A stretch of DNA of 64,000 nucleotides from an uncultured Gemmatimonadaceae bacterium (GTDB lineage Bacteria; Gemmatimonadota; Gemmatimonadetes; Gemmatimonadales; Gemmatimonadaceae). Positions within the stretch are counted from its first letter, which is position 1. The number at the start of each line of letters is the position of its first letter. The position numbers and the translations under genes were made by a program. Shown piece after piece: positions 2,691-49,681 of the stretch. Location: assembly GCA_963716745.1 (NCBI GenBank), contig OY970320.1, positions 2,880,001 through 2,944,000 of the forward strand, read 5' to 3'. The notes beneath the pieces were generated by a model that was not told the origin of the DNA, did no database searches, and saw only the letters and a program-made list of their open reading frames with translations.

Positions 2691-3521
2691 ATGGGCATCC
2701 GTCAATTCAAGCCCGTCACCAAGGGCACCCGCTTCCGCACCGTCTCGGATTTCGCCGAGATCACGCGGACGCAGCCGGAGAAGTCGCTCGTCGAGCCGCT
2801 CAAGAAGAGCGGCGGGCGCGACAATCACGGGCACATCTCGATGCGCCGCCTCGGCGGCGGTCACAAGCGGATGTACCGCGTGATCGACTTCAAGCGGAAC
2901 AAGCCGGGCGTCGTGGCGACCGTGCGTGAGATCGAGTACGACCCGAACCGCTCGGCGCGCATCGCGCTGGTGGAGTACGCGGACGGCGAGAAGCGCTACG
3001 TGCTGCATCCGGCGGGGCTGAACGTGGGCGACACGATCGTGTCGGGGCCCGGCTCGGACATCCGGCTCGGCAACGCGATCCCGCTCAAGGAAGTGCCGCT
3101 CGGCACCGCGGTGCACAATATCGAGCTCAAGATCGGCAAGGGCGGCCAGATGGCGCGCTCGGCCGGCCAGAGCGCGCAGGTGGTCGCGAAGGAAGGCGAT
3201 TACGTGACGCTGCGTCTGGGCTCGAGCGAGATGCGCCTGGTGCACGGCTTATGCATGGCGACGATCGGCACCGTGGGGAACGCGGAGCACGAGCTGCTGT
3301 CGTGGGGCAAGGCGGGCAAGACGCGTTGGCTGGGCCGCCGTCCCAAGGTGCGCGGTGAAGTGATGAACCCGGTGGACCACCCGCATGGCGGCCGCACACG
3401 CGGCGGCCGGAACGTGGTGAGCCCGTGGGGCAAGAAGGAAGGCGTGAAGACGCGGAACAAGAAGAAGGGCTCGCAGAAGCTGATCGTGCGCGGCAGGAAG
3501 CGCGGCAAGGCCACTCAGTAA
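2691..3521 (+). CDS. rplB: 50S ribosomal protein uL2
   Basis: [26 protein letters not shown] at 2691. Confidence 0.98.
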
Positions 3522-3525
3522 GACG

Positions 3526-3594
3526 CGGGACTCGGCACTCGGGACTCGACTGCTGTCGAATCCCGCGGCGAGTCCCGAGTCCCGAATCCCGAGT
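3526..3594. repeat. Heptamer palindrome (GGGACTC-type left arm, GAGTCCC-type right arm)
   Basis: cgggactcggcactcgggactcg ... cgagtcccgagtcccgaatcccgag between rplB and rpsS. Confidence 0.9.
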
Positions 3595-3623
3595 TCTAAG
3601 AACACTCAGAGGAAGTCGAGCAT

Positions 3624-3998
3624 ATGGCACGCAGCATCAAGAAAGGCCCCTTCGTCCAGCCGGTGTTGTTGAAGCGCGTGCGCGCGCTCAACAAGGCCAA
3701 CGAGAAGAAGGTCATGAAGACCTGGAGCCGCGCGAGCACCGTGACCCCGGAGTTCGTGGGGCACACGTTCGCGGTGCACAACGGGAACAAGTTCATCCCG
3801 GTGTACGTCACGGAGAACATGGTCGGGCACAAGCTCGGCGAGTTCTCTCCGACGCGGCTCTTCCGCGGGCACACGGGCATGAAGGCGGTGGACAAGAAGG
3901 CGGGACCGCCGGGTGGCACCGGGGCTCCGGGCGGCGGCGGACCGGGTGCGGCTCCGGCCGCGGCGCCGTCGGCACCGCCGTCCAAGGGAGGTAAGTGA
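3624..3998 (+). CDS. rpsS: 30S ribosomal protein uS19 with Gly/Pro/Ala C-terminal tail
   Basis: [29 protein letters not shown]. Confidence 0.98.
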
Positions 3999-4000
3999 TC

Positions 4001-4360
4001 ATGGCTGACGTGCGCGCGATCCAGCGCACCACTCGCCAGTCGCCGTACAAGATGCGGCTGGTGATCGATCAGATCCGCGGCATGAACGTGAACGAAGCGC
4101 TCGCGCTCCTCACGTTCTCGAAGAAGCACGCCGCGAAGCAGATCGGGAAGGTGCTCAAGAGCGCCGTGGCGAACGCGGAGCAGCACGCCCGCGCCGCGAG
4201 CGAGTCGCTGGATACGGACAAGCTATTCGTGAAGCATGCGATCGTGAACGAAGGACCGAAGCTCAAGCGCTTCATGCCGGCGGCCATGGGCCGGGGCACA
4301 CCTATCGCCAAGCGGACGAGCCACGTAGAGATCGTGGTCGCCGAGAGGAAAGGTCGCTAA
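4001..4360 (+). CDS. rplV: 50S ribosomal protein uL22
   Basis: [33 protein letters not shown]. Confidence 0.97.
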
Positions 4361-5019
4361 TGGGACAGAAAGTCAATCCGATCGGCTTCCGCCTCGGGAT
4401 CACGCGCGACCACCGTTCCAAGTGGTACGCGAACCGCGATTTCCCCGCGCTGCTGAAGGAAGATGAGTTGCTGCGCCGCTACCTGAAGGCGCGCCTCGGT
4501 CATGCCGCGATCAGCGACATCACGATCGAGCGCAAGCCGGGCAAGGTCGTGGCGACGATCCACACGGGCCGGCCGGGCGTCGTGATCGGCAAGAAGGGCG
4601 CCGAGGTCGACAAGCTGCGGGACGAACTCGCGCAGCTCACGGGCAAGGAAGTGGGGATCAACGTCGAAGAGGTGAAGCGTCCGGAACTCGATGCGCAGCT
4701 CGTGGGCGATCAGATCGCGCACCAGCTGGCGCAGCGCATCTCGTTCCGCCGGGCGATGAAGCGCGCCGTGCAGAGCGCGATGCGCATGGGCGCGCAGGGG
4801 ATCAAGATCAAGTGCGGCGGGCGGCTGGGCGGCGCCGAGATCGCGCGCGTCGAGGGCTATCACGAAGGCCGTGTGCCCCTCCATACGCTGCGCGCGAAGA
4901 TCGACTACGCGACGTCCACGGCGAAGACCACCTTCGGCACCATCGGTGTGAAGGTCTGGATCTTCCACGGCGAGGACACAGTGGGCCGCCGCGGTTCAAC
5001 GTACTCGACGGGCGCGTGA
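4360..5019 (+). CDS. rpsC: 30S ribosomal protein uS3
   Basis: [33 protein letters not shown]. Confidence 0.99.
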
Positions 5020-34535: not shown

Positions 34536-34607
34536 GACGTTCCGCGCGAGAAACCAGAGTCCCCCCACTCTGGCTTGCAACGCGTCGAACGACGTAGATT
34601 TCCCCTC

Positions 34608-35955
34608 GTGACCCCGGAGAAAGCGAAGCCCACCCCCGACGCGTCAGTCCGCGAGTTGATGGTCGTGCGCGAGATCGCGCACGCGTTCCTCACCGCCGAC
34701 CGGCCCGAAGAGGTCTTCCAGTTCGCGCTCGAACGCGTGAGCCCGCTCGTCGGCGCCACCTTCGCGTCCATCTACCTCATCGAGCCCGGCGACGAGCAGA
34801 TGCGCCTCGCCGCCGCCTATAACTGGCCCGAGAAATTCCGCCCATTCCTCGGCGAGATGCGCGTGAAGGTCGGGCTCGGCCCCAGCGGCGAAGCGGTGAG
34901 CGAGCGTCACGCCATCACGATCCCCAATGTCTTCGCCGACGAGACGCTCAGCGACTGGCAGGAAGTCGCGAAGGAACTCGGCTTCCGCGCGCTCGTGGCG
35001 CTGCCGCTCTCGATCGCGGGGCACTGTGCTAGGCGCGGTCACGTTCTATTTCGCCGAGACCGGCGGACTCACGCCGGAGCGGAGCGGACTGCTGCAGATC
35101 GTCGCCGACCAGATGGCGGCCACCACTGAGAAAGCCGCGCTCATCCAGCAGCTGCGCCGCACGAACGCCGCGCTTACCGAGTCGAATGCCGAACTCGAGA
35201 AGCAGTACCTCGCTGCGCTCGAGGCACGACGCATGAAAGATGAGTTCCTCGCAAACATCAGCCACGAACTCCGCACGCCGCTCACCGCGGTGCTCGGCTA
35301 CGCCGACCTCATGCAAGAGGGACTCTCGGGTCCGCTCACCGGCGAGCAGAGTTCCACGATCGAGCAGATGACCGGCGCGAGCCAGCGCTTGCTCGAGTTG
35401 ATCGACGATCTGCTGGAGCTCACCACGCTCAAGGGCGGGGAAGCGCGCCTCACGGTGGAGAGCTTCGACGCACGCGAGGCGATGAAGGATGCCCTCGCCG
35501 CCGCGCGCGAGCCGGCGCCGGGCGTGGTCGTGAAGCTCAAGATGTCGGAGAGCGACGCCATCTGGATCCGCAGCGACCGGCGGAAGGTGGCCAAGATCCT
35601 CACCAGTCTGCTGAACAACGCCTTCAAATTCACCACGGAGGGCGACGTGCTGGCCGCGCTCGAAAGTCGCAACAATTCGGTGCGCTTCTCCGTACGGGAT
35701 ACGGGTATCGGGATCGACCCGGCCGCGCATGAAGTGGTGTTCGAAGAGTTCCGTCAGGCCGACGGATCCGCGACACGACGCTTCGGAGGTTCAGGGCTCG
35801 GTCTCGCGCTCTCGCGCCAGCTGGCGCGACTGCTCGGCGGCGACATCACGCTGGAATCGGCGCCGAGTTCCGGATCGCAATTCACGCTGTCACTCCCTGT
35901 GGAATACGCGCCCGCGCCATCGAACGCGAACCGTCAACCAGTCGAGCTGAGATGA
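34608..35955 (+). CDS. GAF-domain sensor histidine kinase (frameshift near 35020)
   Basis: GAF-like N-terminus; FLANISHELRTPL H-box, NNAFKFT, DTGIG, GGSGLGL. Confidence 0.92.
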
Positions 35956-36233
35956 TCCAGGAGATCCGGACAGCCATGTCGCCCGCGGAGGTGCTTGCCG
36001 CCGCGAAGGAATTCTTCCCGTCGCGCAGCGCGATCTACGCCGCATTCCTCGAGAAGGAAGGGCCGGGCTACGCGACGTTCCGCGGCTCGTGCGGCGAGGA
36101 GATCGTGATCGGTGCCGCGACGGTGGACGGCGTGACCGTCGCGCGTGGCTCCACGTATCTCTACGACCAGCAGGTCGGGCGCTTCTTCACCGCGCTCCGG
36201 CCCATGCCGCTCGCCGAGTCGGACGTCGGATGA
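35952..36233 (+). CDS. Small hypothetical protein (93 aa)
   Basis: ATGA overlaps at both ends; typical codon usage. Confidence 0.7.
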   Translation: MIQEIRTAMSPAEVLAAAKEFFPSRSAIYAAFLEKEGPGYATFRGSCGEEIVIGAATVDGVTVARGSTYLYDQQVGRFFTALRPMPLAESDVG

Positions 36234-36550
36234 CGGCGCCCTTCGTCACCACGCTGCGCGCGCGTCCCGGTACGATCGTGCTCGGCGCCGCGCCCGGCGC
36301 GCTCGTGCTTCGCGTGGAGATGCCCGAGACCTGGGATGTGGTGCGCCTCACCGCACAGCCGTCGGACACGGTGCTTGCCGTGAAGATCGGCGCGCTCGCC
36401 GCGATGATGCCCGGTGCCGACCATCGCCGCTGGGTGATGAAGCTGCGCGGCGCCGAGATCGGCGCCGAGAGCCAGACGCTGCAGGAGATCAACGCACGCA
36501 GCGGTTCGACTTTCCTGCTCACACACCGGCGCCGCCGGGCGGTTCGTTGA
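36230..36550 (+). CDS. Small protein with ubiquitin-like (beta-grasp, YukD/EsaB-like) pattern
   Basis: VRLTAQPSDTVLAVK..., MKLRGAEI..ESQTLQEINARSGSTFLL mirrors the ubiquitin PSDTI..VK / AGKQL..GRTLSDYNIQKESTLHL pattern. Confidence 0.65.
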   Translation: MTAPFVTTLRARPGTIVLGAAPGALVLRVEMPETWDVVRLTAQPSDTVLAVKIGALAAMMPGADHRRWVMKLRGAEIGAESQTLQEINARSGSTFLLTHRRRRAVR

Positions 36551-37557
36551 CCGCCGTTCCCGCACTCAAGCGCGAGGCGTTGGGCGAGGCCGCGGTGCGG
36601 TTGCGCCGCGAAGTCGCGCGCCGGATCGTCGGGCAGGATCAGGTGGTGGAAGAGATCCTCATGGCGATGCTCGCCGGCGGACACGCGCTGCTCGTGGGCG
36701 TGCCGGGGCTCGCGAAAACGCTATTGATCCGCTCGATCGCCGAAGCGATGCAGCTCGATTTCCGCCGCATCCAGTTCACGCCCGATCTGGTGCCGAGCGA
36801 CATCACCGGCACCGAGATCATGGAGGAGGACACCGCGAGCGGCGCGCGCGAGTTCCGTTTCGTGCGCGGCCCCGTGTTCGCGAACATCGTGCTGGCCGAC
36901 GAGATCAACCGTACGCCGCCGCGCACGCAGGCCGCGATGCTCGAGGCGATGCAGGAACATTCGGTGACCGTCGCGGGCGAGACGATGAAACTGCCCGAAC
37001 CCTTCTTCGTGCTCGCGACGCAGAATCCCATTGAGCAGGAAGGCACGTATCCGCTGCCGGAAGCGCAGCTCGACCGCTTCCTGTTCGACGTGCGCATCGG
37101 CTATCCGAGCGCGGATGAGGAAGTGGCGATCCTGCGCGCCACTACCGGCGCGAACAAGGTGGATCTCGCGCCCGTGCTCGACGCCGAGCAAACACTCGGC
37201 CTGCAACGGCTCACGCGCGAGATGGCGGCCGCCGAGCCGGCGCTGCGCTACGCGGCGGCGCTCGCGCGCGCGACGCGCCCCGACGGCATCGACACGCCCG
37301 ATCTCGTGAAGCGCTACGTGCGCTGGGGCGCCGGCCCGCGCGCCGGCCAGGCGTTGATCCTCGGCGCCAAGGCGCACGCGATGCTCGCCGGCCGCTTCGC
37401 GATCGCGCCCGAGGACATCCGCCGCGTCGCGCATCCGGTGCTGCGGCACCGCGTGCTCCCGAACTTCGCCGCGGAGGCGGAAGGGGTGACGGCCGAGCGG
37501 CTCATCGACGACATTCTCGAGCGAGTCCCGCCGCCGCGGAGCGACATCAAGCTCTAG
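36547..37557 (+). CDS. MoxR family AAA+ ATPase
   Basis: GVPGLAKT, RIQFTPDLVPSD, LADEINR, ATQNPIEQEGTYPLPEAQLDRF; TTG start in TTGA overlap. Confidence 0.96.
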   Translation: MTAVPALKREALGEAAVRLRREVARRIVGQDQVVEEILMAMLAGGHALLVGVPGLAKTLLIRSIAEAMQLDFRRIQFTPDLVPSDITGTEIMEEDTASGAREFRFVRGPVFANIVLADEINRTPPRTQAAMLEAMQEHSVTVAGETMKLPEPFFVLATQNPIEQEGTYPLPEAQLDRFLFDVRIGYPSADEEVAILRATTGANKVDLAPVLDAEQTLGLQRLTREMAAAEPALRYAAALARATRPDGIDTPDLVKRYVRWGAGPRAGQALILGAKAHAMLAGRFAIAPEDIRRVAHPVLRHRVLPNFAAEAEGVTAERLIDDILERVPPPRSDIKL

Positions 37558-37559
37558 CC

Positions 37560-38426
37560 GTGCCACTCGCGACGAGTTACGGCGCCATGCTCGACGCGCT
37601 GCGCGGCGTGAGCTGGCCGGCGCGCCGCGTCGCGCGCGGAACGACCACCGGATCGCATCGTTCGCGGCTGCGCGGGGCGTCGCCCGAGTTCACGGAGTAT
37701 CGCCCATACCGTCAGGGCGACGACCCAAAGCTCATCGACTGGAAGCTGCTCGCGCGAACCGATCGCGTGTATCTGCGCATCACGACCGACCGCTCGACGC
37801 TGGGCACCATCGTGCTGCTGGATGCGTCGGCGAGCATGGCGTATCGCAGCGGACCGAACGCGAAGTGGGAGCAGGCGTGCCGGCTGGCGGTTGGACTCGT
37901 CGCGGTGGCGCACGCGTCGGGCGATCCCGTGGGGATCCTCGTGCCGTCGGCGGACGGACTGCGATTCCTCGCGCCTCGCACACGCCGCGGGGTGGTGGCA
38001 GAAGCGGCGCGTCTGCTCGCGGGGATAGCGCCCGCGGGGAATGAACCGTTGGCGCCGGCGTTCGCGCACGTGCGACCGGGATTCCGCATTGCTATCGTCT
38101 CCGATTTCCTTGGCGATGCCGACGCGCTGCTGCGCGCGTCGCACGAACGGATCATCGCGGGCGGAGAAGTGGACGCAGTGCACGTGGTGGCGCGTGAGGA
38201 ACTCGATCCGCCGGCCGCGCCGGCGATGGCCACCGATCCTGAATTGCCGGACATCAAGCGCGCGCTCGTAGAGACCACGCGTGAGGGCTACATGACCGCA
38301 TTCGCGGCGTGGCGCCTGGAGCTGGCGCGCGGCTGGCGCGACGCCGGCGCTGGCTTCACCGAGGTCGTGACCGACGAAGGGGCGGAGAACGCGGTGTTGC
38401 GCGTGGTGCGCGACGTGACGTCATGA
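37560..38426 (+). CDS. DUF58 / vWA-like protein
   Basis: EFTEYRPYRQGDD..IDWK, LDASASM, VSDF. Confidence 0.92.
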   Translation: MPLATSYGAMLDALRGVSWPARRVARGTTTGSHRSRLRGASPEFTEYRPYRQGDDPKLIDWKLLARTDRVYLRITTDRSTLGTIVLLDASASMAYRSGPNAKWEQACRLAVGLVAVAHASGDPVGILVPSADGLRFLAPRTRRGVVAEAARLLAGIAPAGNEPLAPAFAHVRPGFRIAIVSDFLGDADALLRASHERIIAGGEVDAVHVVAREELDPPAAPAMATDPELPDIKRALVETTREGYMTAFAAWRLELARGWRDAGAGFTEVVTDEGAENAVLRVVRDVTS

Positions 38427-39673
38427 ACTTTGCGGCGCCGGCGTTCCTTGCGGCGGGCATCGCCGCGGCGCTCGTGGTCGCGGCACTCCACTTCCTCGCG
38501 CGGCAACGCCCACGAAAGGCGGTGTTCCCAACGGCGCGGTTCATTCCGGATCGCTCGGCGCGCGCGCCGTCGCGCGCGCTCAAGCCGAGTGATCTGCTCT
38601 TGTTGTTGTTGCGCGCGGCCGCATTGATGCTGTTGGGCGCGGCGTTCGCTCGGCCAGCGTGGAGCACGGCGCATTCGGGAACGGCGCGAGTGGTGCTGGT
38701 GGATCGCTCGCGGGCCGTGGCCAACGCGACGGAGGCGCGCGACTCGGCGACGGCCGCCCTGCGCGACGGCGATGCGTTGGTGTTGTTCGATTCCGGCGTG
38801 GTCGTTGTCCCGAAGGATTCGCTGAGCGCGATGCGCACGACCGCCGCTCGCGGTTCGATCTCGGCGGCGCTAGTGACCGCGCACCAAGCGGCGGCGAACC
38901 TCGCGGAGCGTTTCGATTCCGTGGAGCTGGTGATCGTGTCGCCGATCGTGCGCGAGGAGGTCGATGCGGCGTCCCTGGATATTCGGGGCACATGGCCGGG
39001 GCGGGCGAGGGTCGTGCGGCTGAAGGCGGCGGCATTTGACTCCACGAGACGCGGTGCGACGGTGCGCGGCGACGCAGCCGATGCTCTGGTGAGCTCGGGA
39101 CTCGGGACTCGGGACTCGGGCGGAGGGGCGCGTGTGGTGCGTGGAACGGCGTCGCGCAGCGACAGCATTTGGGCGAGCGACTCAGCTGGCGTGCTCGTTC
39201 TCTGGCCCGCGGCACTCGGCGTGCCGCACGACACCATCGGTGCCGTCGCCATGGGCGACGACGTCGTAGTCTCGGCATTCGCGCGCAGCGCGAATGTCGC
39301 CGTCGAGTCCCGAGTCCCGAATCCCGAACCGATCGCGTTCTTTGCCGATGGGGTCCCCGCTGCACTCGAGGCTCGCACGAAATCCGGTTGTATTCGAAAC
39401 GTCACCATCCCGATTCCCGCCGCCGGCGACCTCGTCCTTCGCGAGAGCTTCCGCCGTCTGTTCAACGGCCTCACCGGCCCCTGCGGCGGCGCGCGCGATC
39501 TGCGGCCGGCACCGGATTCGGTCGCCTCGCAGCTCGCCGCATTCGGCGCACTCGCGAGCGCCCGCACTTGGAATCGCGATGACAGTCGCACGCCCCCGCT
39601 CGCGCGCTGGTTCCTCGTCGCGGCGGCGGTGCTGCTGGTCGCCGAACCGTTCCTGCGCCGGAGGGCCGCCTGA
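38423..39673 (+). CDS. BatA N-terminal double-TM domain protein
   Basis: MNFAAPAFL...ALHFLAR...VFPTARFI...LLLLLR...AFARP; VDRSRAV degenerate MIDAS; C-terminal TM. Confidence 0.85.
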   Translation: MNFAAPAFLAAGIAAALVVAALHFLARQRPRKAVFPTARFIPDRSARAPSRALKPSDLLLLLLRAAALMLLGAAFARPAWSTAHSGTARVVLVDRSRAVANATEARDSATAALRDGDALVLFDSGVVVVPKDSLSAMRTTAARGSISAALVTAHQAAANLAERFDSVELVIVSPIVREEVDAASLDIRGTWPGRARVVRLKAAAFDSTRRGATVRGDAADALVSSGLGTRDSGGGARVVRGTASRSDSIWASDSAGVLVLWPAALGVPHDTIGAVAMGDDVVVSAFARSANVAVESRVPNPEPIAFFADGVPAALEARTKSGCIRNVTIPIPAAGDLVLRESFRRLFNGLTGPCGGARDLRPAPDSVASQLAAFGALASARTWNRDDSRTPPLARWFLVAAAVLLVAEPFLRRRAA

Positions 39674-41725
39674 GCGCGCGGGCGCGGGTCGCGAGCGCGC
39701 GATGGCTGCTCGGCTCCGCCGCGCTCGCGAGCAGCGGGCTCTGGGCGCTCGTCGTGTACGCGCTGACGCGATCGACGATGCGGCTCGTCTCCATCTGCAG
39801 CGATCAAGGACCGCACCGGGATTCTCTGCGCCTGCTCGCGATGGCGCTCATGATCGGCACGTTGGTCTTCGCGCTCTGGCGATCGCACCGTGCCTGGTCG
39901 CGCGATGCGGTCGCGCTCTGGCTGGAGGAGCGCGCGCCGTCCATGCGCTACGCGCTCGTCACGGTGGTGGAACAGCCGGCCGTGACCAGCGCGGCGGAGC
40001 TGGAGCGCGCAGTCGAGACAGGTGCGGTTCGCGCCGCTGATCGCGAGAGAATTCCTCCGGAGCATCGGGCATCCCGCTGCTCATGCTGGCTGGCGCGATG
40101 ACCCTCTGGTTCTCGATCCCGCGTCCGCGCTGCGTCGACACCGGCCGGCCCCTCGGCGTGGGCGCGGGCCAATCTCCGGCCGGCTCCGCGCTGAATCGCC
40201 TAGTGCCGCTCCGTGCCACGGTCACGCCGCCGGCGTACGCGGGACTGACGGAGCGCACCTTCGAAGAGCCCAGCTCGATCCCAGGCCTCGTTGCGAGCCG
40301 CGTCTCCATCTCGGGAAAGGGCGCTGCCGCCGGGATCTCGGTGCGTCTCGATACGCACATCGATCCCGGTCACGGGCGACGATGGCCGTTGGCGCGCAGA
40401 ATTCCGCATGCCCGCGAAGGCCACCGCGCTCTCGCTCGCGGACCGCACCTTCCACCGTCTCGTGATCCTCGAGCCGCGCCCCGATTCCGCGCCCGTGGTC
40501 ACGTTGCTCGCGCCGATGCACGACACGGTGTTCCGCACGCCCTCGGGTTCGCTCGCACTCAGCGCCGAAGCGCGCGATGACTTCGGGCTCGCCGACGCGT
40601 GGCTCGAGTACATCATCAGCTCGGGCGAAGGGGAGAGCTTCACCTTCCGCAGCGGCGTCATCGGCCGCGTGGATTCGAAGAATTCGCGCACGGCTTCGGT
40701 GCAGGGAACGCTACGCCTCGACGATCTCAAGTTGAGGCCCGGCGACATCGTGCACATCCGCGCGGTCGCGCGCGATCTGAACAATGCCACGGGCCCCGAC
40801 ACCGGCGCCTCCGAAACACGCACGCTGCGCGTCGCGCGCAAAGACGAGTACGACTCCGTGGCTGTAGAAGGCGCGCCACCGCCGGACGCCGACAAATCGG
40901 TGCTCAGCGAGCGCATGCTCATCATGATGACCGAGGACCTCGAGCGCCGCCGCCCGAAGCTCGCGCGCGACGCCGTCGTCGCCGAGTCGCGCAGTATCGG
41001 GCGCGATCAGACGCGGCTTCGCAAGGAAGTCTCCCGCATCATCTTCGCGCGACTCGGCGCGGGGAGCGAGAGCGAGGAGTCCAACGCGAGCGACGACGAC
41101 ACGCAGGGCAAGATGACGCCCGACCAACTGCTCGCCGCCGCTGACTCCGCCACGAACCAGAGCGCCGGCACGCTCGAAGGCGAGGGCGACGAGACGCCCA
41201 TTGTCGCGCTCAATCGCCCGCTGCTCGAAGCGTACAACGCGATGTGGGATGCGAGCACGCGGCTCGAACACCGGCGAGCCCGGCGAAGCGCTTCCCTACA
41301 TGCGCGCGGCGCTCGCCGCGATCCAGCGCGCGCGCGCGGCGGAGCGGTTGTATCTGCGCGGCCGCACGCCGCCGGCGGTGGTGGACCTCCAGAAGGTGCG
41401 GCTCGCCGGCAAGCGCGACAATGCGACGGCCGCGATGCGTGCGCCGCGCAACGCGCTCGACACGACCGCCGCGCGCCGCGTGCGCCGTCTGAACGCGGCG
41501 CTCTCGCTGCTCGGCGAGCACGCGCAGGCCGCGATCGATTCGCTGCAACTCCTGCGCGTGGATGCCATCGCGCACGATCCGGCGCTCGCCGCAGCGCTCG
41601 GCCCGGTGATCGACTCGGCGCGCACGGGCGGGAATTCGGCCGCGGCCATCGCACGCGCGCGGCGCGTCGCCGCCGGCGCGCCTGCCGTCGAGCGGAACGG
41701 CGTGAACTGGGAAGGCGCACCGTGA
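39670..41725 (+). CDS. Large membrane-anchored DUF4175-like protein (several frameshifts; possible CTG start)
   Basis: TM start, TVTPPAYAG, DSAPVV, ARDDFGL, LRPGDIVHIRAVARD, AYNAMWDA, ALPYMRAALAAIQ across consecutive frames. Confidence 0.7.
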
Positions 41726-42334
41726 CCGCATTCACCTTCGTCACCGTGCGCTATGAGTCGGGCGATTGGGACGCCGCGCCGCTCGTACCCGAGAACATCA
41801 TCGACACCATCGCGCGCTACACGTCCATCAAGGTGGAACCCGCGGGCGTCGTCGTGCCGCTCTCGTCGCCGGAATTGATGCGCTATCCGTTCGCGTTCCT
41901 CACCGGGCATCTCCCGGTGCGCTTCAGCACCGCGGAGCGCGACCAGCTGCGCGGCGTGGCTCGCGCGCGGCGGATTCCTGTTCGTGGACGATCACAACCA
42001 CGACATCGATGGCGCGTTCCATAAGAGCGTTACCGAGGAGATCGCGCGCACCGTGGGGCCATTGGTGGACGTGCCGAACGACAGCCCGCTGTATCGCGCG
42101 TTCTTCACGTTCCCCGACGGTCCGCCCGCCACGAGTCACGAACTCAACGGCTGGGGCGACAATCTCGTGCACAAGCATCTGCGTGCGGTGATGCGCGAGG
42201 GCCGGATCAGCGTGCTGTACAGCAACAAGGATTACAGCTCCGAGTGGGGATATCACGCCGACAACAAGCGTTTCCTCTCGGTGGACAACACGCGCTTCGC
42301 GGTGAACGTGGTGGTGTATGCCCTCACCAGCTGA
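41722..42334 (+). CDS. DUF4159 domain protein (frameshift near 41960)
   Basis: VRYESGDWD, YPFAFLTGH, GGFLFVDD, YSNKDYSSEW, RFAVNVVVYALT. Confidence 0.85.
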
Positions 42335-43617
42335 GACGCGGCGCTGGATCGAGCGCGGCTGGCGCGCGCTGGCGCTCGCGCTGCTCGCGTGGGCACTGGT
42401 GATCGCGTTCCGCGCGCCGGCGCGCACGGCCGTGCGCGATCCCGGGCGATGCGCTTCCGGCGGAGTTGCCGCGGCTCTCGCGCTCGGCAGAACCTGCGTG
42501 GGTCGAAGTGTCATTCCTCGCTGCGCCGACGCCGGATTCGCGCGAGTGGCTTCGCGCCCTCGCACGTTCTGGCAGCCGCGTGACGTGGCGGGCGGCCGCG
42601 CCGCTCGCACCGCTCGCGATCGAACTATCGCCACGCGCCGATCCTGCCGGCGGCATGCGCGCATTCATTGCCGCACGGCGTGGCGACACGATGACGGTGT
42701 CGGACCGCGCGGGCCTCCTCGATTCGATCACCGGTGCGTCGCCCGCGACGACGCTCACTCTCCCGGCGCTGGTGCCGCTGTTCTCCGCGCGTGAAAGCGC
42801 GCAGGAAGCGCGCGCCGCGCTCCGCGATTCGCTCGCGCCCCGCCGCGTGCTCGTGCTGGGCGAGGCCGGATGGGAAGGGAAGTTCGTCCTCGCCGCGCTC
42901 GAGGAACGTGGCTGGCACGCGAGCGCGCGCTTCGCCGTCGCGCCCAACATCGCCGCCGCGCAAGGCGCCGTGAGTCCGCTCGACACCGCGCACTTCGCGG
43001 TGATCGTCGCCCTCGATTCCGCCTCGGCAGCGGCGAATTCGCGAACGATCACCGACTTCGTGCGCCAAGGCGGCGGCCTCATCCTCGCCGGCGACGCCGG
43101 CCGCGCGCCCGCAATGCTCGCGCTCGCGCCAGGAACCGTCGGCCCGCACCAACACGCCGCATCGCTGTCCTTCGCCGACAGCGCCCCGCGCCGCGCACTC
43201 GGCTTCTACGCCATCACGAATCTCAGGCCGGACGCGATCTCGCTCGAGAGCCGCGACAACAAACACGCCGTTGCCGCCCGCCGCGCCGGCCGCGGCCGCG
43301 TGCTCCAACTCGGCTACGACGATACGTGGCGCTGGCGCTTCGCCGGCGGCCGCACCGCCCCCGAAGCCGAGCGCACGTGGTGGAGCGCCATGGTTTCGAG
43401 CGTCTCCTACCGCGCCGCACTCCCACTCGCGGGGAGTGCGCAGTTGAACGCGAACTCCGCGCCGCTCACGTCGCTGTATTCGTCGTTGGGTTCACCGACA
43501 GCCGACAGCCGACAGCCCGTCTCTGTAGTTTTCGGTCTTCCCTGGTGGCTATTGAGCCTCATCGTGCTCTCCCTCCTCGCCGAGATCGCCTCCCGCCGTC
43601 TCAGAGGCGCCCCATGA
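42318..43617 (+). CDS. Membrane protein with glutamine-amidotransferase-like C-terminal domain (frameshift near 42450)
   Basis: N-terminal TM; GWEGKFV, FVRQGGGLILAG, GRGRVLQLGYDDTWRWR; C-terminal TM. Confidence 0.7.
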
Positions 43618-44546
43618 CCGTCGCGTTCATCTCGCATTCCGATTGCGGCCGCCACGACACCGGCTGGGGCGCGCCCGAGCACGTCGGCCGCCTGCGCGCG
43701 ATCACGAGCGCGATGAAGTTCGATCTCGCGCTCTTCGAGAACCTGCGCCACGTCGAAGGCCGTCACGCCACCCGCGAAGAACTCGCGCTCGCGCACGAGC
43801 CCGCGTACATCGATCTCGTTGAGGAAACGGCGCGCAACGGCGGCGGCCGCCTCGATGCCGACACCGTCGAGAGCGAAGGTTCGTGGGATGCGGCGACTGC
43901 CGGCGCCGGCTGCGTGCTCGACGGCGTGGATTTCGCCTTCGCCGATGTGCCCGAGCGCAGCTTCAGCGCCGTGCGGCCGCCCGGGCCATCATGCGCTCGC
44001 CGACACCGCGATGGGATTCTGTCTCTTCGGCAACGTCGCGATCGCCGCGCACTACGCGCGCAAGAAACATCATGCCGATCGCGTGCTCATCGTCGACTTC
44101 GACGTGCATCACGGCAACGGCACGCAGGCGCTCGTCGAGCAGCGAGCCCGGGATCCATTTCGTGTCAATGCACCAATGGCCCTGGTATCCCGGCAGCGGC
44201 GCCGCCACGGAGCGCGGCGATGGGAACCTGTGGAACGTGCCGATGCCGCCCGGCCTCGCTGCCGCAGCAGTACGTGGACGCGCTCGAGCGTGCGATCGAC
44301 GCGGCCACGGCCGGCTTCGCGCCCGATCTCATCCTCATCTCCGCCGGGTTCGACTCGCTCCGCGGCGATCCGCTCGGCGGCTTCACGCTCGAGCCCGAAC
44401 ACCTCGCCGGGGTCACACGCCGTCTCGTGGAGCGCGCCAAGGTCTCCGCGCGCGGCCGCGTGGTGAGCGCGCTCGAGGGCGGCTATTCGCTGCCACTGCT
44501 CGGACAAGGGGTGCTCGCGCACCTCCACGCGCTCGGCGAGTCTTGA
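43614..44546 (+). CDS. Histone deacetylase family protein (three frameshifts ~43983, ~44143, ~44258)
   Basis: [53 protein letters not shown]. Confidence 0.93.
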
Positions 44547-44578: not shown

Positions 44579-45390
44579 ATGCCAACGGGGCGGATCCCGC
44601 CGGTGCCGGCTGTGCTGCGGCTGGTGCAGCGCGCGGTGCTGCACCGCTGGCAGGCCACAGCCGAGGACCTGTATCGCGAGGTCGCCGCGCTCGTCGAGGC
44701 GGTGCCGCGCATGGAGATCGTCGTCTCCGGGTGCGGCGAAGGGGAAACGTCGCAATGGCTCGCGGAGCACACGGGTGCGGCGGTGACCGGAGTGGACCCG
44801 GACGCCGGCCGGATCGCGGTGGCGGAAGCGCGGTCGCGCGAGCCGGAAGCGAAGGCGCGGGTGCACTACGAGCACGCGCCGCTGGACGATCTGCCGCACG
44901 AGACGGGCGTGTTCGACGTCGCGATCGGCGACGCGGCGCTCTCGGCGAGCGCCGATCCGGAGCGGGCGGTGGCGGAGCTGGTGCGGGTCGTGAAGCCAAT
45001 GGGGATCGTGGTGCTGCTGCAACCGACTTGGACGAGTGAGATCGCTCGCGAGACGCGCGAGGCGATCGTCGACCGTCTGGGATTGCGGCCGCACCTCCTC
45101 GTGGAGTGGAAGCAGATGATGCGCGATGCCGGCCTGGTGGAACTGCAGGTGCAGGATTGGACCGACGGCGCACCCGGCGGCCGCGCGAGCGCGCCCGGTG
45201 CACCGCATCCGCATCTCACCGTGCGCCAGAAGATGCACATCGTCGGCCGCGCCTGGCGGCGCTGGGGCTGGCGCGAGGCGCGCGGCGCCGTGGAGCGCGA
45301 GACATCGCTCATCCGCGAGCTATCGCGCCAGCGGGCGCTCGGCTTCCAGCTCATGCGCGGCGTGAAGTGGCCGCACGAGAGGGCCGGCTG

Positions 45391-45391
<1 letters not shown>
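44579..45391 (+). CDS. Class I SAM-dependent methyltransferase
   Basis: VSGCGEG, VTGVD, LPHETGVFDV, ELVRVVKPMG. Confidence 0.85.
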
Positions 45392-46394
<1,003 letters not shown>

Positions 46395-46398
<4 letters not shown>

Positions 46399-47414
46399 AG
46401 ATCAGCCACGAACTCGTCACTCTGCGCACGAAGCACGAATTCACGATCGCGCGCGGCGGCTCGAGCGAATTCCGCGTGGTGCTCGTCACCGTGACGGACA
46501 AGGACGGCGCCTTCGGCGTGGGTGAGGCGGATCCGAGCCGCTTCTACGGCGAATACGCCGACACCGTGCCGGTGGCGCTCGCGCAGTTCGCGCCGATCCT
46601 CGAGAGAGCCGATGGCTGGTCGCTCGAGGGGATCGAGGCGGACATGAATGCCAAGATGCGCGGGAACGGCGCGGCGAAGAGCGCGGTGATGGCGGCGCTC
46701 TACGATCTCATGGGCAAACGTCTCGGGCAGCCGCTGTACAAGCTCTTCGGCCTCGATCCCGCGAAGGCGCCCGGCTCGAGCTTCACGATCGGCTTCGCGC
46801 CCGAAGAGGAGATGCGTCTCAAGCTGCGCGAGGCGAAGGATTATCCCATCCTGAAAGTGAAGCTCGGCACCGATCACGATGAGGACGTCATCCGCATCAT
46901 CCGCGAAGAAGCGCCCGACAAGACGCTCTACGTGGACGCGAATTGCGCGTGGACGCCCAAGCAGGCGCTGAACAGCATCGAGATGCTCGTGGGCTACGAC
47001 GTGGAGATCGTCGAGCAGCCGCTGCCGCCCACCGATCCCGAAGGGCTGCGCTTCGTGCGCGACCGTTCACCGCTGCCGATCATCGCCGATGAATCGTGCC
47101 TCGTGGCGAGCGACATCCCGAAGCTCGCGGGCGTCGTGGACGGCATCAACATCAAGCTCGCGAAGTGCGGCGGACCACGTGAAGCGATCAAGATGGCCGC
47201 GACCGCGCGCGCGCACGGCATGCTCGTGATGATGGGCTGCATGATCGAGACGAGCGTCGGCATTACGACGGCCGCGCATCTCGCGCCGCTGCTCGATTAC
47301 GCCGACCTCGACGGTGCCGCGCTCGTGGCCAACGATCCGTACCGAGGCGCGACGATCGACCGCGGCGTGATCACGATCCCCACCGCACCGGGGCTCGGCG
47401 TCACGAGAGCATGA
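46395..47414 (+). CDS. Dipeptide epimerase (L-Ala-D/L-Glu epimerase-like, enolase superfamily)
   Basis: FTIARG, LKVKLG, VDANCAW, EQP, ADES, NIKLAKCGG, ADLDG. Confidence 0.92.
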
Positions 47415-49681
47415 GCGGCAAGCGGTACCTCGAGGTCGCGCTCCCGCTCCCGCTGTTCCAGACCTTCACGTATTCGGTCCCCGACGGCGCGGCGCTCCCC
47501 GCGCCCGGGATGCGCGTGCTCGTGCCCGTGCGCGGGCGGCGCGCGATCGGCATCGTGCTCGGACCGGCGACGGGCGAGGGGATCAAGAACGTAAAGGACA
47601 TCCTCGACGCGCCTGACGCCGAGGCGAGCGTTCCCGCGGAGTTGCTCGCGCTCGCGCGCTGGATCGCGGACTACTTCGTGGCGCCGGTGGGGCTCGTACT
47701 GCGCGCGATGCTGCCGTCGGCGCTCACCGGCTCGCGGGTGCCGCGGCCGGCGCCGCGCACGCAGCGCATCGCGCGCCTCAGCGTGGAACTTCCATCGCTC
47801 GAGGAGCGCGACCGCGTCTTCGCGCGCGCGGCGCGGCAGCGTGCGCTCTATGAAGCGCTCGAATCGCTCGGCGGCGCGAGCGACACCGTGCATCTCACCA
47901 CGCAACTCGGCTTCGCGCCGGCGGTGATCCGCGCGCTCGCGGAGCGCGGGCTGATCGCGCTCTCGGAGAGCGAGGTGGTGCGCGACCCGTTCCTCGCGCG
48001 CGCGATTCCTCCGGCGGCGGCGCACGTACCGACGCCCGCACAGCGCGATGCGCTCGCGGCACTCGTCGCGGCCAAGCCGGGCGCCCCGTTCCTTCTGCGC
48101 GGCATCACCGGCAGCGGCAAGACGCTCGTTTACATCGAGTTCCTGCGGGAGATCGTCGAGCGGCGCGGCAAGAGCGCGATCGTGCTCGTGCCGGAGATCG
48201 CCCTCACGCCGCAGGCGGTGGACCGCTTTCGCGCGGCTTTCGGCGAACGCATCGCGGTGCTGCACTCCGGGCTCTCCGATGGCGAGCGCTACGACGCCTG
48301 GCGCGCGCTGCGCAACGGCACGAAGACGATCGCCGTCGGCGCGCGCTCGGCGATCTTCGCGCCGCTCGCGAACCTCGGCGCGATCATCGTGGACGAAGAA
48401 CACGAGGGCAGTTACAAGAACGGCGAGACGCCGCGCTATCACGCGCGCGAGGTCGCGCTCGTGCGCGCACGCGACGAGGGCGCGGTGGTGGTGCTCGGCT
48501 CGGCCACGCCGAGTCTGGAGAGCTGGCAGAATGCGCAGGCGGGGAAGTACACACTGCTCACGCTCCCCGATCGCGTGGCGGATGCGAAGCTGCCGGCGGT
48601 GGAAGTAGTGGACATGCGTGCGCCGGCGCGCCCGGCCGCGCAGGGTCCGCGCGCGGCGGTGATCGATCCCTTCCGCCGCGTGTTCAGCGAGCCACTCGAA
48701 GCGGCGCTCGGCGAGCGGCTGCAACGCGGCGAGCAGAGCATCCTGCTGCTGAATCGGCGCGGCTTCGCCGCGTTCGTGCAGTGCGATGCCTGCGGCGATG
48801 TCGTCGTCTGTCCCAATTGTTCGATCACGCTCACGTACCACAAGAATCCCGAGCGACTCGTGTGCCATTACTGCCGCCACGAGCAGGCGCTGAGCGAGAA
48901 GTGCGCGCGCTGCGGCGGCACCACGGTTCGCCAGCGCGGACTCGGTACGCAGCAGGCGGAGAAGCTGCTCGCCGAGCGGTATCCGTACGCGCGCATCGCG
49001 CGCATGGACGTGGACACGACGAGCGGCAAATGGGCGCACGCCGAGATCCTCGACCGCGTGGGGCGCGGCGAGGTGGACGTGTTGCTGGGCACGCAGATGA
49101 TCGCGAAGGGGCTCGATTTCCCGAACGTGACGTTGGTCGGTGTGATCGATGCCGATGTCGGGATCAACCTGCCCGATTTCCGCGCGAGCGAACGCAGCTT
49201 CCAGTTGTTGAGCCAGGTGGCGGGCCGCGCCGGCCGCGGCGCGAAGGGCGGGGAAGTGATCATCCAGACGCGCGTGCCTTCGCATCACGCCGTGCGCGCC
49301 GCGGTGACGCACGATTACCTCACGTTCGTTCGCGAAGAACTCTCGGGGCGGAAGGATCCCGTGTATCCGCCCTACACGCGCCTCGCGAACGTGATCGTGA
49401 GCGGCGAGGAGGAGGAACCGGTCGCGCGACTCACGATCGCGGCGGCCGCGTGGCTGCGGCGGCTGATCGCCGAGCAGAAAGTGGAAGGCGTGACGGTGGT
49501 CGGACCCGCGCCGTGCCCGGTGGAGCGAGTGAAGCGGCGGTGGCGGTGGCATTTGCTGCTCAAAGCCGAGAACCCGGCTTCACTGACGAAGGTCGCTCGC
49601 TATTTCCTTGAGAGGTTCGACGTTCCGGCGCGAGGGGAAATGAGAGTGAGCGTGGATCGGGATCCGGTGGCACTGCTCTAA
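47411..49681 (+). CDS. priA: Primosomal protein N'
   Basis: GITGSGKT, LVPEIALTPQ, DEEHE, LNRRGF, four CxxC pairs, GTQMIAKGLDFPNV, QVAGRAGR. Confidence 0.98.
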   Translation: MSGKRYLEVALPLPLFQTFTYSVPDGAALPAPGMRVLVPVRGRRAIGIVLGPATGEGIKNVKDILDAPDAEASVPAELLALARWIADYFVAPVGLVLRAMLPSALTGSRVPRPAPRTQRIARLSVELPSLEERDRVFARAARQRALYEALESLGGASDTVHLTTQLGFAPAVIRALAERGLIALSESEVVRDPFLARAIPPAAAHVPTPAQRDALAALVAAKPGAPFLLRGITGSGKTLVYIEFLREIVERRGKSAIVLVPEIALTPQAVDRFRAAFGERIAVLHSGLSDGERYDAWRALRNGTKTIAVGARSAIFAPLANLGAIIVDEEHEGSYKNGETPRYHAREVALVRARDEGAVVVLGSATPSLESWQNAQAGKYTLLTLPDRVADAKLPAVEVVDMRAPARPAAQGPRAAVIDPFRRVFSEPLEAALGERLQRGEQSILLLNRRGFAAFVQCDACGDVVVCPNCSITLTYHKNPERLVCHYCRHEQALSEKCARCGGTTVRQRGLGTQQAEKLLAERYPYARIARMDVDTTSGKWAHAEILDRVGRGEVDVLLGTQMIAKGLDFPNVTLVGVIDADVGINLPDFRASERSFQLLSQVAGRAGRGAKGGEVIIQTRVPSHHAVRAAVTHDYLTFVREELSGRKDPVYPPYTRLANVIVSGEEEEPVARLTIAAAAWLRRLIAEQKVEGVTVVGPAPCPVERVKRRWRWHLLLKAENPASLTKVARYFLERFDVPARGEMRVSVDRDPVALL

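Follow-up and report, generated by a model that had tools for sequence, protein, structure and literature searches.

A conserved gene pair encoding a predicted ubiquitin-fold protein and a small acidic partner in Gemmatimonadota, and its relation to neighbouring MoxR and deacetylase genes

Background

Stand-alone ubiquitin-fold proteins of bacteria are known as sulfur carriers, as secretion accessories and, more recently, as members of true conjugation systems. The described systems closest to the locus reported here are the two-gene units MoaD-MoaE and ThiS-ThiG, the YukD/EsaB proteins (PF08817) of Gram-positive type VII secretion, the conjugatable modifiers (ubiquitin, SAMP, TtuB, Bub/BilA) and, where an AAA+ ATPase is encoded nearby, the UBX-p97 adaptors, the ubiquitin-like proteasome shuttles and the chaperone-like MoxR-vWA operons (MoxR-DUF58-BatA/Bat aerotolerance; RavA-ViaA). 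The locus lies in a 64-kb stretch of DNA (the window, G000:C1:2880001-2944000) from an uncultured Gemmatimonadaceae bacterium, whose genome, G000, is one contig of 3.29 Mb with about 70% GC and a completeness score of 89.8%. It contains two small genes, encoding a 93-amino acid protein (p93) and a 106-amino acid ubiquitin-like protein (Ubl), followed by a block of genes that begins with a MoxR-type ATPase and then by a gene for a deacetylase of the HDAC family. An original prediction, made from the sequence, had suggested p93 and Ubl as possible adaptors or substrates of the MoxR machine; comparison of related loci indicates instead that the pair itself is the conserved unit.

The three genes on which the comparison centres are the following.

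35952..36233, + strand: p93, 93 amino acids, acidic (pI 4.8), of a family restricted to Gemmatimonadota, with a KA1-like predicted fold (homologues, AlphaFold2 [AF2] model and VIA search)
36230..36550, + strand: Ubl, 106 amino acids, beta-grasp protein of the ubiquitin type that has one additional strand on the N-terminal side and ends in the tail HRRRRAVR (AF2 and Foldseek)
43629..44546, + strand: HDAC-family (PF00850) deacetylase, with three +1 frame switches (Pfam, 2.4e-33)

As judged from gene order and predicted folds, p93 and Ubl would form an undescribed, non-conjugated and adaptor-like module in which an Arg-rich tail docks a third component, with the HDAC-type enzyme as the best candidate and with the MoxR block not required, a reading to which we give about an even chance.

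Results and discussion

Conservation of the p93-Ubl pair

Families are denoted by the internal labels f1 to f12, f1 being the window's own family, f2 and f3 sister families, and f5 and f6 more distant ones. Among the 46 loci compared (30 from f1, the window's own included, 10 from f2, 2 from f3 and 4 from f5/f6), p93 was located directly upstream of Ubl in every case (30/30, 10/10, 2/2 and 4/4, respectively), often with overlapping stop and start codons. Searches of a set of 5.8 billion proteins at a cut-off of E<=1e-3 gave 81 homologues of Ubl and 428 of p93, the named ones all being from Gemmatimonadota and most being of query length. Since full-length alignments with many equally long homologues were obtained for each of the two small open reading frames (ORFs), both were considered real conserved genes, and the possibilities that they are one frame-broken gene or chance GC-rich ORFs were ruled out.

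Profile searches in 301 sampled genomes of the phylum Gemmatimonadota matched Ubl in 215 genomes (f1 67/69, f2 123/125, f3 3/3, f5 1/1 and f6 20/23) and p93 in 250 (f1 69/69, f2 125/125, f3 3/3, f5 1/1, f6 23/23 and f8 4/4, with weak matches in 23/47 genomes of f7 and a match in 1/6 of f4). These tallies take in unpublished genomes, of which G157, G057 and G182 entered both and G097 that of p93. The Ubl profile had no match in f7 (0/47), f4 or f8 to f12 in this survey, and a broader Ubl profile had none in five f7/f8 genomes that have p93-like genes. Each matching genome had one Ubl gene except G108, which had two; many genomes carried a second, weaker p93 paralogue, G000 having a single p93 match. 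These distributions indicate that p93 and Ubl constitute a two-gene module that is near-universal in the order, with Ubl nearly always in single copy, and that weaker matches extend to two further families. No description of the Ubl family was found by full-text searching among the listings and abstract openings returned, and a term search of the main text of PMC1949818 gave no mention of a deacetylase, MoxR or AAA+.

Two apparent fusions of these genes were rejected. The 534-amino acid 'MoxR-like ATPase' P0355, which would join p93, Ubl and MoxR, is a read-through over several frameshifts on a 2.5-kb metagenome contig, and L059:6198-7280, which would join p93 and Ubl, departs from its relatives at the very position expected of a frameshift. 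A complex prediction of p93 with Ubl, run without controls, gave no answer (score 0.01 against a mark of 0.32), and no conclusion was drawn from it.

The genes upstream of the pair varied among families. A histidine kinase homologue was present in 25/30 f1 loci but was lacking from all 10 f2 loci and both f3 loci, and the kinase link of the original prediction is thus partly supported. In f2 and f3 (L031-L040, L055 and L056), the gene upstream of p93 encoded a 235-amino acid metallopeptidase-like protein of the Zincin_1 family (PF06262), sometimes followed by a gene for a beta-propeller protein, and an enzyme of Cys/Met metabolism dependent on pyridoxal phosphate (PLP) preceded the Zincin_1 gene in 5/10 f2 loci; no homologue was found in the 64-kb window. 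In f5/f6, the neighbours of the pair were genes for an M24 peptidase, a Na/Ala symporter in opposite orientation and a DbpA helicase; HDAC and MoxR were both absent from the vicinity.

Predicted fold of Ubl

The AF2 model of Ubl had a predicted local distance difference test (pLDDT) score of 86 and a predicted template modelling (pTM) score of 0.77. It comprised strands at residues 25-31 and 36-42, a helix at 48-59 and strands at 68-72 and 94-99, that is, a beta-beta-alpha-beta-beta arrangement, with an extra strand at residues 10-17 on the N-terminal side. Comparison of the model with the PDB using Foldseek gave 438 matches at E<=1e-3, the best of which were ubiquitin and ubiquitin variants, with target-normalised TM scores of 0.8-0.89, a root-mean-square deviation (rmsd) of 1.5-2 Å over about 80 residues, and 23-25% identity. 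The ubiquitin-like character first suspected from the sequence pattern was borne out by this superposition, and the model confirms the 106-amino acid protein as a genuine ubiquitin-fold (beta-grasp) protein.

At the level of sequence families, p93 and Ubl of the window matched no Pfam or NCBIfam model at threshold. Sub-threshold Pfam matches were counted, as were the tail and charge properties given below, over 53 members of the Ubl family from f1; they were to YukD (42/53), UBL_UBAC1 (23/53) and DUF2604 (20/53), all of which are ubiquitin-like families. The best E value for YukD was 2.1e-6 among these members and that of an f5 homologue was 1.2e-4, and the window's Ubl itself had no Pfam match at E<=0.1, YukD included. 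Searching the PDB with the family profile gave marginal matches only, mostly to ubiquitin-like proteins, with a best E of 0.0047. With ubiquitin and its clan (PF00240), Ubl shares the beta-grasp and a flexible tail after the last strand, but it differs in that the tail is HRRRR(A/P)VR ending in Arg instead of LRGG, in the extra N-terminal strand, in scoring below the Pfam ubiquitin threshold, and in that Pfam scanning placed no E1, E2, E3 or deubiquitinase (DUB) gene near the window pair.

C-terminal tail of Ubl and comparison with modifiers, sulfur carriers and secretion accessories

The C-terminal residue of Ubl was Arg in 48/53 members and Gly in none, extending to the family the lack of a di-Gly end that had been pointed out for the window's protein; the full motif HRRRR(A/P)VR was present in 39/53. 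The last 10 residues had a median net charge of +5, and the median pI of p93 was 4.9. The tail persists in f2 and f3, RRRRPVR and ARRRAVR being examples; the sequences read from these families (three from f2 and two from f3) end in Arg or His. Orthologues from f5/f6 ending in Gly were located at L057:6831-7112, L058:6719-7018, L060:7276-7551 (- strand) and L059:6939-7280, with the endings PFRG, PFKG and RFTG, and these genes adjoin neither HDAC nor MoxR. The Gly end may represent an ancestral or alternative, possibly activatable, C-terminus. The difference in tail type, Arg-rich with HDAC adjacency as against Gly without it, coincides with the split between families and is a single evolutionary event, which adds little weight.

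These features bear on the possibility that Ubl is in fact a modifier of the ubiquitin, SAMP, ThiS or MoaD type, conjugatable or sulfur-carrying but cryptic, with an E1-like activator encoded elsewhere. The true ubiquitin fold, the Gly end in f5/f6 and the presence in G000 of one ThiF/E1-like gene, the sole one of the genome and about 1 Mb from the pair, are consistent with such a role, as is the p93 paralogue that adjoins a ThiS/MoaD-MoaE-MoaA cluster in one f6 genome (see below). The MoaD-MoaE and ThiS-ThiG systems resemble the pair in being two-gene units in which a beta-grasp protein, its tail conserved, is encoded beside a small alpha/beta partner, the partner there receiving the C-terminal tail; the C-terminal domain of a MoaD-related Thermus protein resembles p93 at Z 7.0, a value within the background range of the tool. 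However, the Gly residue required by the known modifiers is lacking from the window's Ubl and from all f1 members counted, and the f2/f3 sequences read agree with these. No E1, E2 or JAB gene was present in the window neighbourhood or in the Pfam-scanned loci, nor was an E1, E2, JAB, MoaE or ThiG gene next to the pair in the 46 loci, and the window's Ubl also lacks an adjacent DUB gene. The ThiS model (PF02597) did not match Ubl, and the window locus is set apart from the MoaD-MoaE and ThiS-ThiG systems by the lack of Gly-Gly, of Pfam matches to ThiS or MoaE and of genes for cofactor synthesis. A modifier role is therefore regarded as very improbable.

A YukD/EsaB-like accessory, non-conjugated and helping to assemble a secretion or envelope machine, would likewise be a small stand-alone bacterial ubiquitin-like protein without Gly-Gly, and YukD was the commonest of the sub-threshold Pfam matches. 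Against this, the match fell below the curated cut-off where it was shown (23.2 versus 27 bits for the f5 homologue) and was absent for the window protein. The WXG100 family (PF06013) was not found in G000, 89.8% complete, whereas control genomes gave matches, and no FtsK-type ATPase or other secretion gene was present in the neighbourhoods examined. YukD differs further in that Ubl is paired with p93, has a conserved basic tail and was found in no type VII context. A secretion accessory is hardly credible as an explanation of Ubl.

The p93 protein

The AF2 model of p93 (pLDDT 88) had a beta-alpha-beta4-alpha topology, for which Foldseek gave no match in the PDB at E<=1e-3, and a search of the ESM Atlas recovered only Gemmatimonadota clusters, that is, its own family. 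The VIA wide search gave Z 9.1 for the KA1 domain of Chk1 and Z 9.0 for the regulatory domain of CIPK14, with SRPBCC/Aha1 half-folds at Z 6-8. Likeness to KA1 domains (Chk1, MARK, SAD, CIPK and the C-terminal domain of AMPK alpha) lay at Z 8.3-9.1 with an rmsd of 2.1-2.5 Å over 80-82 residues, but p93 differs from them in standing alone and in being only 4-12% identical, that is, without sequence similarity, and the SRPBCC/Aha1 half-folds score nearly as well.

Among 1.84 billion representative sequences, the p93 profile had 296 matches at E<=1e-3, nearly all of them small proteins without added domains. Seven long proteins of 444-2141 amino acids (P0248, P0259, P0262, P0263, P0319, P0333 and P0349) matched positions 47-85 of the profile 6-15 times each, and the beta-hairpin half of p93 may also be repeated in tandem within large proteins. 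The p93 paralogue of f1 and f2 adjoins genes for 2-oxoacid dehydrogenase E1/E2, myo-inositol-phosphate synthase or PhoU/PHO4, contexts from which no clear function emerged. In one f6 genome (locus L078, G058:C1:2246000-2255000), a p93 paralogue is located directly upstream of genes for an 83-amino acid ubiquitin-like protein of the ThiS/MoaD family, MoaE and MoaA (about 3455-4794 of the locus, - strand), a second case in which a p93-like protein is paired with a protein of beta-grasp fold.

The HDAC-type deacetylase and its adjacency to Ubl

The window gene matched the profile hidden Markov model of the HDAC/acetylpolyamine amidohydrolase family (PF00850) and carried its catalytic motifs. Pfam matched the window gene, frame-broken as it is, at an E value of 2.4e-33 and the intact orthologue at 8e-89, the latter being from L065, the locus of a relative used as intact reference for genes that are frame-broken in the window. 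The His-His, D-x-D-x-H-H-G-N-G, G-D-P-L-G and E-G-G-Y motifs were all present when three frame switches were followed, His-His and D-x-D-V-H-H-G-N-G being intact in the shifted frames. The closest solved chains were domains of HDAC6 and 300-amino acid bacterial lysine deacylases.

In all 15 of the 30 f1 loci that lack MoxR, one of which (L014) comes from the unpublished genome G157, HDAC directly followed Ubl. The 24 long MoxR-less loci (12 of f1, 10 of f2 and 2 of f3) all had the order p93, Ubl, HDAC, with HDAC on the strand of Ubl and about 15-390 bases beyond it, followed, after a methyltransferase or a Ser/Thr kinase in some, by MR_MLE and PriA; past the MoxR block, the series from HDAC to PriA resumed both in the window and in 7/7 extended MoxR-type loci reaching far enough. 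Over the three families with HDAC adjacency, p93 had diverged to about 45% identity and PriA to about 50%.

This unbroken same-strand, short-gap adjacency of Ubl and HDAC in three families (24/24) stands against the alternative that p93-Ubl is a free-standing module whose target is not encoded nearby, with HDAC, the MoxR block, the kinase and PriA as incidental synteny. Such a module would accord with the pair itself being the only invariant over five families, with upstream genes that vary (histidine kinase in f1, Zincin_1 or beta-propeller genes in f2/f3, M24 peptidase in f5), and with HDAC orthologues that occur without linkage to Ubl in f5-f7; on balance it is considered doubtful.

Several observations also weigh against the proposal that Ubl acts on HDAC as part of an adaptor-like module with p93. 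Orthologues of HDAC (41-47% identity) are located at a distance from the pair in f5/f6, where the pair does not adjoin HDAC, and one occurs in an f7 genome in which no Ubl was detected. The adjacency is seen in one order only and may be synteny retained by descent, as may be that of MR_MLE and PriA. A 7-kb block is tolerated between Ubl and HDAC, which indicates that tight coupling is not required. The Arg tail is not universal, the f5/f6 orthologues of Ubl ending in P-F-(R/K)-G or R-F-T-G, and the KA1 match of p93 stands only a little above background (Z 9.1, where the best Z is typically 7-8). The argument is built on the gene order of genomes with a common ancestry, so that the loci are not independent, and the binding of p93 to Ubl and of Ubl to the deacetylase are proposals drawn from that order. 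Because the adjacency is confined to one order and HDAC orthologues occur without the linkage, a functional tie between Ubl and HDAC is regarded as hypothetical, its probability being put at about one in three.

The MoxR block

The block of about 7 kb was situated exactly between Ubl and HDAC. In L065 it comprised genes for MoxR, DUF58, a BatA N-terminal protein (466 amino acids), a 718-amino acid protein without a Pfam match, DUF4159 (204 amino acids) and a 432-amino acid protein. The corresponding genes of the window are as follows.

36547..37557, + strand: MoxR-type AAA+ ATPase (Pfam AAA_3, 1.4e-63, plus AAA_lid_2), first gene of the block
37560..38426, + strand: DUF58 (vWA-like) protein (PF01882, 1.1e-26)
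38423..39673, + strand: BatA N-terminal double-transmembrane protein, the ATG of which overlaps the DUF58 stop (Pfam 2.1e-10; TIGR02226)
40173..41629 (aligned stretch), + strand: homologue of the 718-amino acid protein without a Pfam family, spread over three frames (alignment to the L065 homologue)
41719..42334, + strand: DUF4159 protein with a frameshift near 41948 (Pfam, two pieces)
42466..43617, + strand: homologue of the 432-amino acid protein with a weak DUF7408 match, last gene of the block (Pfam and comparison with L065)

With AAA_3 MoxR followed by DUF58, BatA N-terminal and DUF4159 genes, the block at 36547-43617 has the gene set that defines the MoxR-DUF58-BatA (Bat-like) operons, but Ubl and p93 are not part of that operon type. 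Under the original prediction, the MoxR AAA+/vWA machine could have Ubl and p93 as its adaptors, in the manner of UBX-p97, or as its substrates, Ubl recruiting MoxR or being threaded by it and the kinase providing the signal. Several features favour this. In the window, the stop codon of Ubl overlaps the start inferred for MoxR, MoxR followed Ubl on the same strand within about 20-100 bases in 15/30 f1 loci (the window included), the whole block held its position in 8/8 extended loci, and one metagenomic contig (P0355) had the same order of p93, Ubl and MoxR. As with UBX-p97 adaptors and the ubiquitin-like proteasome shuttles, a ubiquitin fold is encoded beside an AAA+ ATPase in the window.

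Wider comparison did not bear out this proposal, which fails the test that the original prediction had set for itself, namely that the two small genes be linked to moxR in other genomes. The linkage was seen in 15/30 f1 loci and in 0/16 outside f1, where no MoxR gene was present within about 6 kb of the pair in any of the 16 loci (10 of f2, 2 of f3 and 4 of f5/f6). The pair was kept without moxR in 15/30 f1, 12/12 f2/f3 and 4/4 f5/f6 loci, that is, without the MoxR block in 31/46 loci. On a maximum likelihood tree of concatenated p93 and Ubl (37 rows and 190 columns), the MoxR state was scattered, requiring 9 changes, at least 2 of which were forced by well-supported branches, with the f2 rows forming one clade; the alignment is short and the exact number of changes uncertain. 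Four MoxR paralogues were present in G000, 100, 61, 49 and 49% identical to the Ubl-linked query. In four f1 genomes in which HDAC directly follows Ubl, the best MoxR match was 61-68% identical and was located elsewhere in the genome; because this equals the value of the second paralogue of G000 (61%), these genomes lack an orthologue of the Ubl-linked MoxR. The pair persists where the Ubl-linked MoxR operon is absent, and therefore the MoxR block is not needed for the pair. Furthermore, BatA double-transmembrane and DUF4159 proteins are typical of Bat-like operons, which are widespread without any Ubl, the Ubl-AAA+ linkage is not conserved, and MoxR is not known to have an N-domain of the kind that binds UBX. 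An adaptor or substrate role in the MoxR machine is consequently quite improbable. The block is, on these gene-order comparisons, a patchy and lineage-specific insertion, and the module is evidently older than the link to MoxR and independent of it.

The further MoxR paralogues of G000 were located at G000:C1:1416731-1417687, 167975-168898 and 1470945-1471892, one of them having an in-frame TGA in the matched stretch.

Gene organization of the window locus

The remaining genes that flank those described above are as follows.

34575..35955, + strand: histidine kinase with GAF, HisKA and HATPase_c domains, frame-broken (Pfam), the stop of which overlaps the p93 start (ATGA)
44579-45391: class I S-adenosylmethionine (SAM) methyltransferase, downstream of HDAC
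About 45520-46398: catalytic domain of a Ser/Thr protein kinase, downstream of HDAC
46395-47414: MR_MLE/enolase-superfamily enzyme
47423-49678: PriA

The third-position GC plot together with Pfam confirmed a co-directional chain on the + strand, running from the histidine kinase through p93, Ubl, MoxR, DUF58 and BatA to HDAC, at the coordinates listed. This chain had been proposed earlier, and Pfam placed histidine kinase, MoxR, DUF58, BatA, DUF4159 and HDAC on the + strand as expected. Each of the p93 and Ubl ORFs had a third-position GC of 0.85-0.87 in its own frame. Four junctions showed 4-base overlaps, namely histidine kinase/p93 (ATGA), p93/Ubl (ATGA), Ubl/MoxR (TTGA) and DUF58/BatA (ATGA), the TTG start of MoxR being inferred. 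The peptides quoted for Ubl in the original prediction, QPSDTVLAVK, LRGAEI...GSTFLL and the C-terminal RRRRAVR, were exact in translation.

The kinase named in the original prediction is, more fully, a GAF-HisKA-HATPase_c protein with its start near 34575; Pfam placed GAF in the frame of 34575-35129 and HisKA/HATPase_c in that of 34927-35955, and the homologue in L065 was intact (475 amino acids). The label 'DUF4175-like' given earlier to the fourth gene of the block was not upheld, since the intact 718-amino acid homologue had no Pfam match at E<=0.01; the true start of this gene in the window would lie upstream of the aligned stretch, near 39.7 kb. The order HDAC, MR_MLE and PriA is common to the sister families, the methyltransferase and the Ser/Thr kinase being variable inserts.

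At least 7 apparent frameshifts were observed in about 10 kb, one in the GAF/histidine kinase gene, two in the 718-amino acid gene, one in DUF4159 and three in HDAC. As a result, the GAF and catalytic parts of the kinase lie in different frames, and the 718-amino acid and DUF4159 genes extend over three and two frames, respectively. The +1 switches in HDAC were located at about 43976-43986, 44142-44144 and 44255-44265. All four frame-broken genes were intact in L065. Contigs of related strains from the soil-metagenome runs X1-X4 had one base fewer at 43976-43983 (4/4 runs), at 44142 (1 run) and at 44260/44261 (2 runs), and also at 44207-44209 (2 runs). The frame breaks are most likely indel errors of the assembly and not marks of real pseudogenes.

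Proposed role of the p93-Ubl module

The adaptor-like module proposed for p93 and Ubl would operate as follows. Ubl would not be conjugated, there being no C-terminal Gly in the order and no E1, E2 or JAB gene nearby, and is probably a small non-covalent binding or adaptor subunit. The acidic, KA1-like p93 would be its obligate partner, as suggested by the pairing of the genes, with complementary charges on the two proteins. The exposed and strongly basic tail HRRRR(A/P)VR would act as a docking element for a third component, most plausibly the HDAC-type lysine deacylase encoded in the same direction. In loci that contain the MoxR block, the block is probably co-transcribed with the pair. In a bolder form, p93, Ubl and HDAC would make up an undescribed, conjugation-independent regulatory system in which a ubiquitin-fold protein, held by p93, controls a bacterial lysine deacylase, its almost invariant Arg-rich tail, basic and similar to a histone tail, docking at, gating or targeting HDAC, and in which the MoxR/vWA machine was recruited into the transcription unit in some lineages; this form is rather unlikely. 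If true, it would be a prokaryotic parallel to the connection between ubiquitin and HDAC6.

Conclusions

The coupling of Ubl to MoxR appears to be a lineage-specific insertion, and the locus is thus unfit as evidence for ubiquitin-like adaptors of MoxR ATPases. The Ubl family, having a close ubiquitin fold by prediction, an Arg-rich tail in place of Gly-Gly and an obligate small partner without a Pfam or NCBIfam match, fits none of the known bacterial classes. It is near-universal and almost always single-copy in one soil-dominant bacterial order, and the pair extends over five families of the class Gemmatimonadetes. If the link between Ubl and HDAC is true, it would provide an entry into the regulation of bacterial protein deacetylases and represent a new, non-covalent use of the ubiquitin fold.

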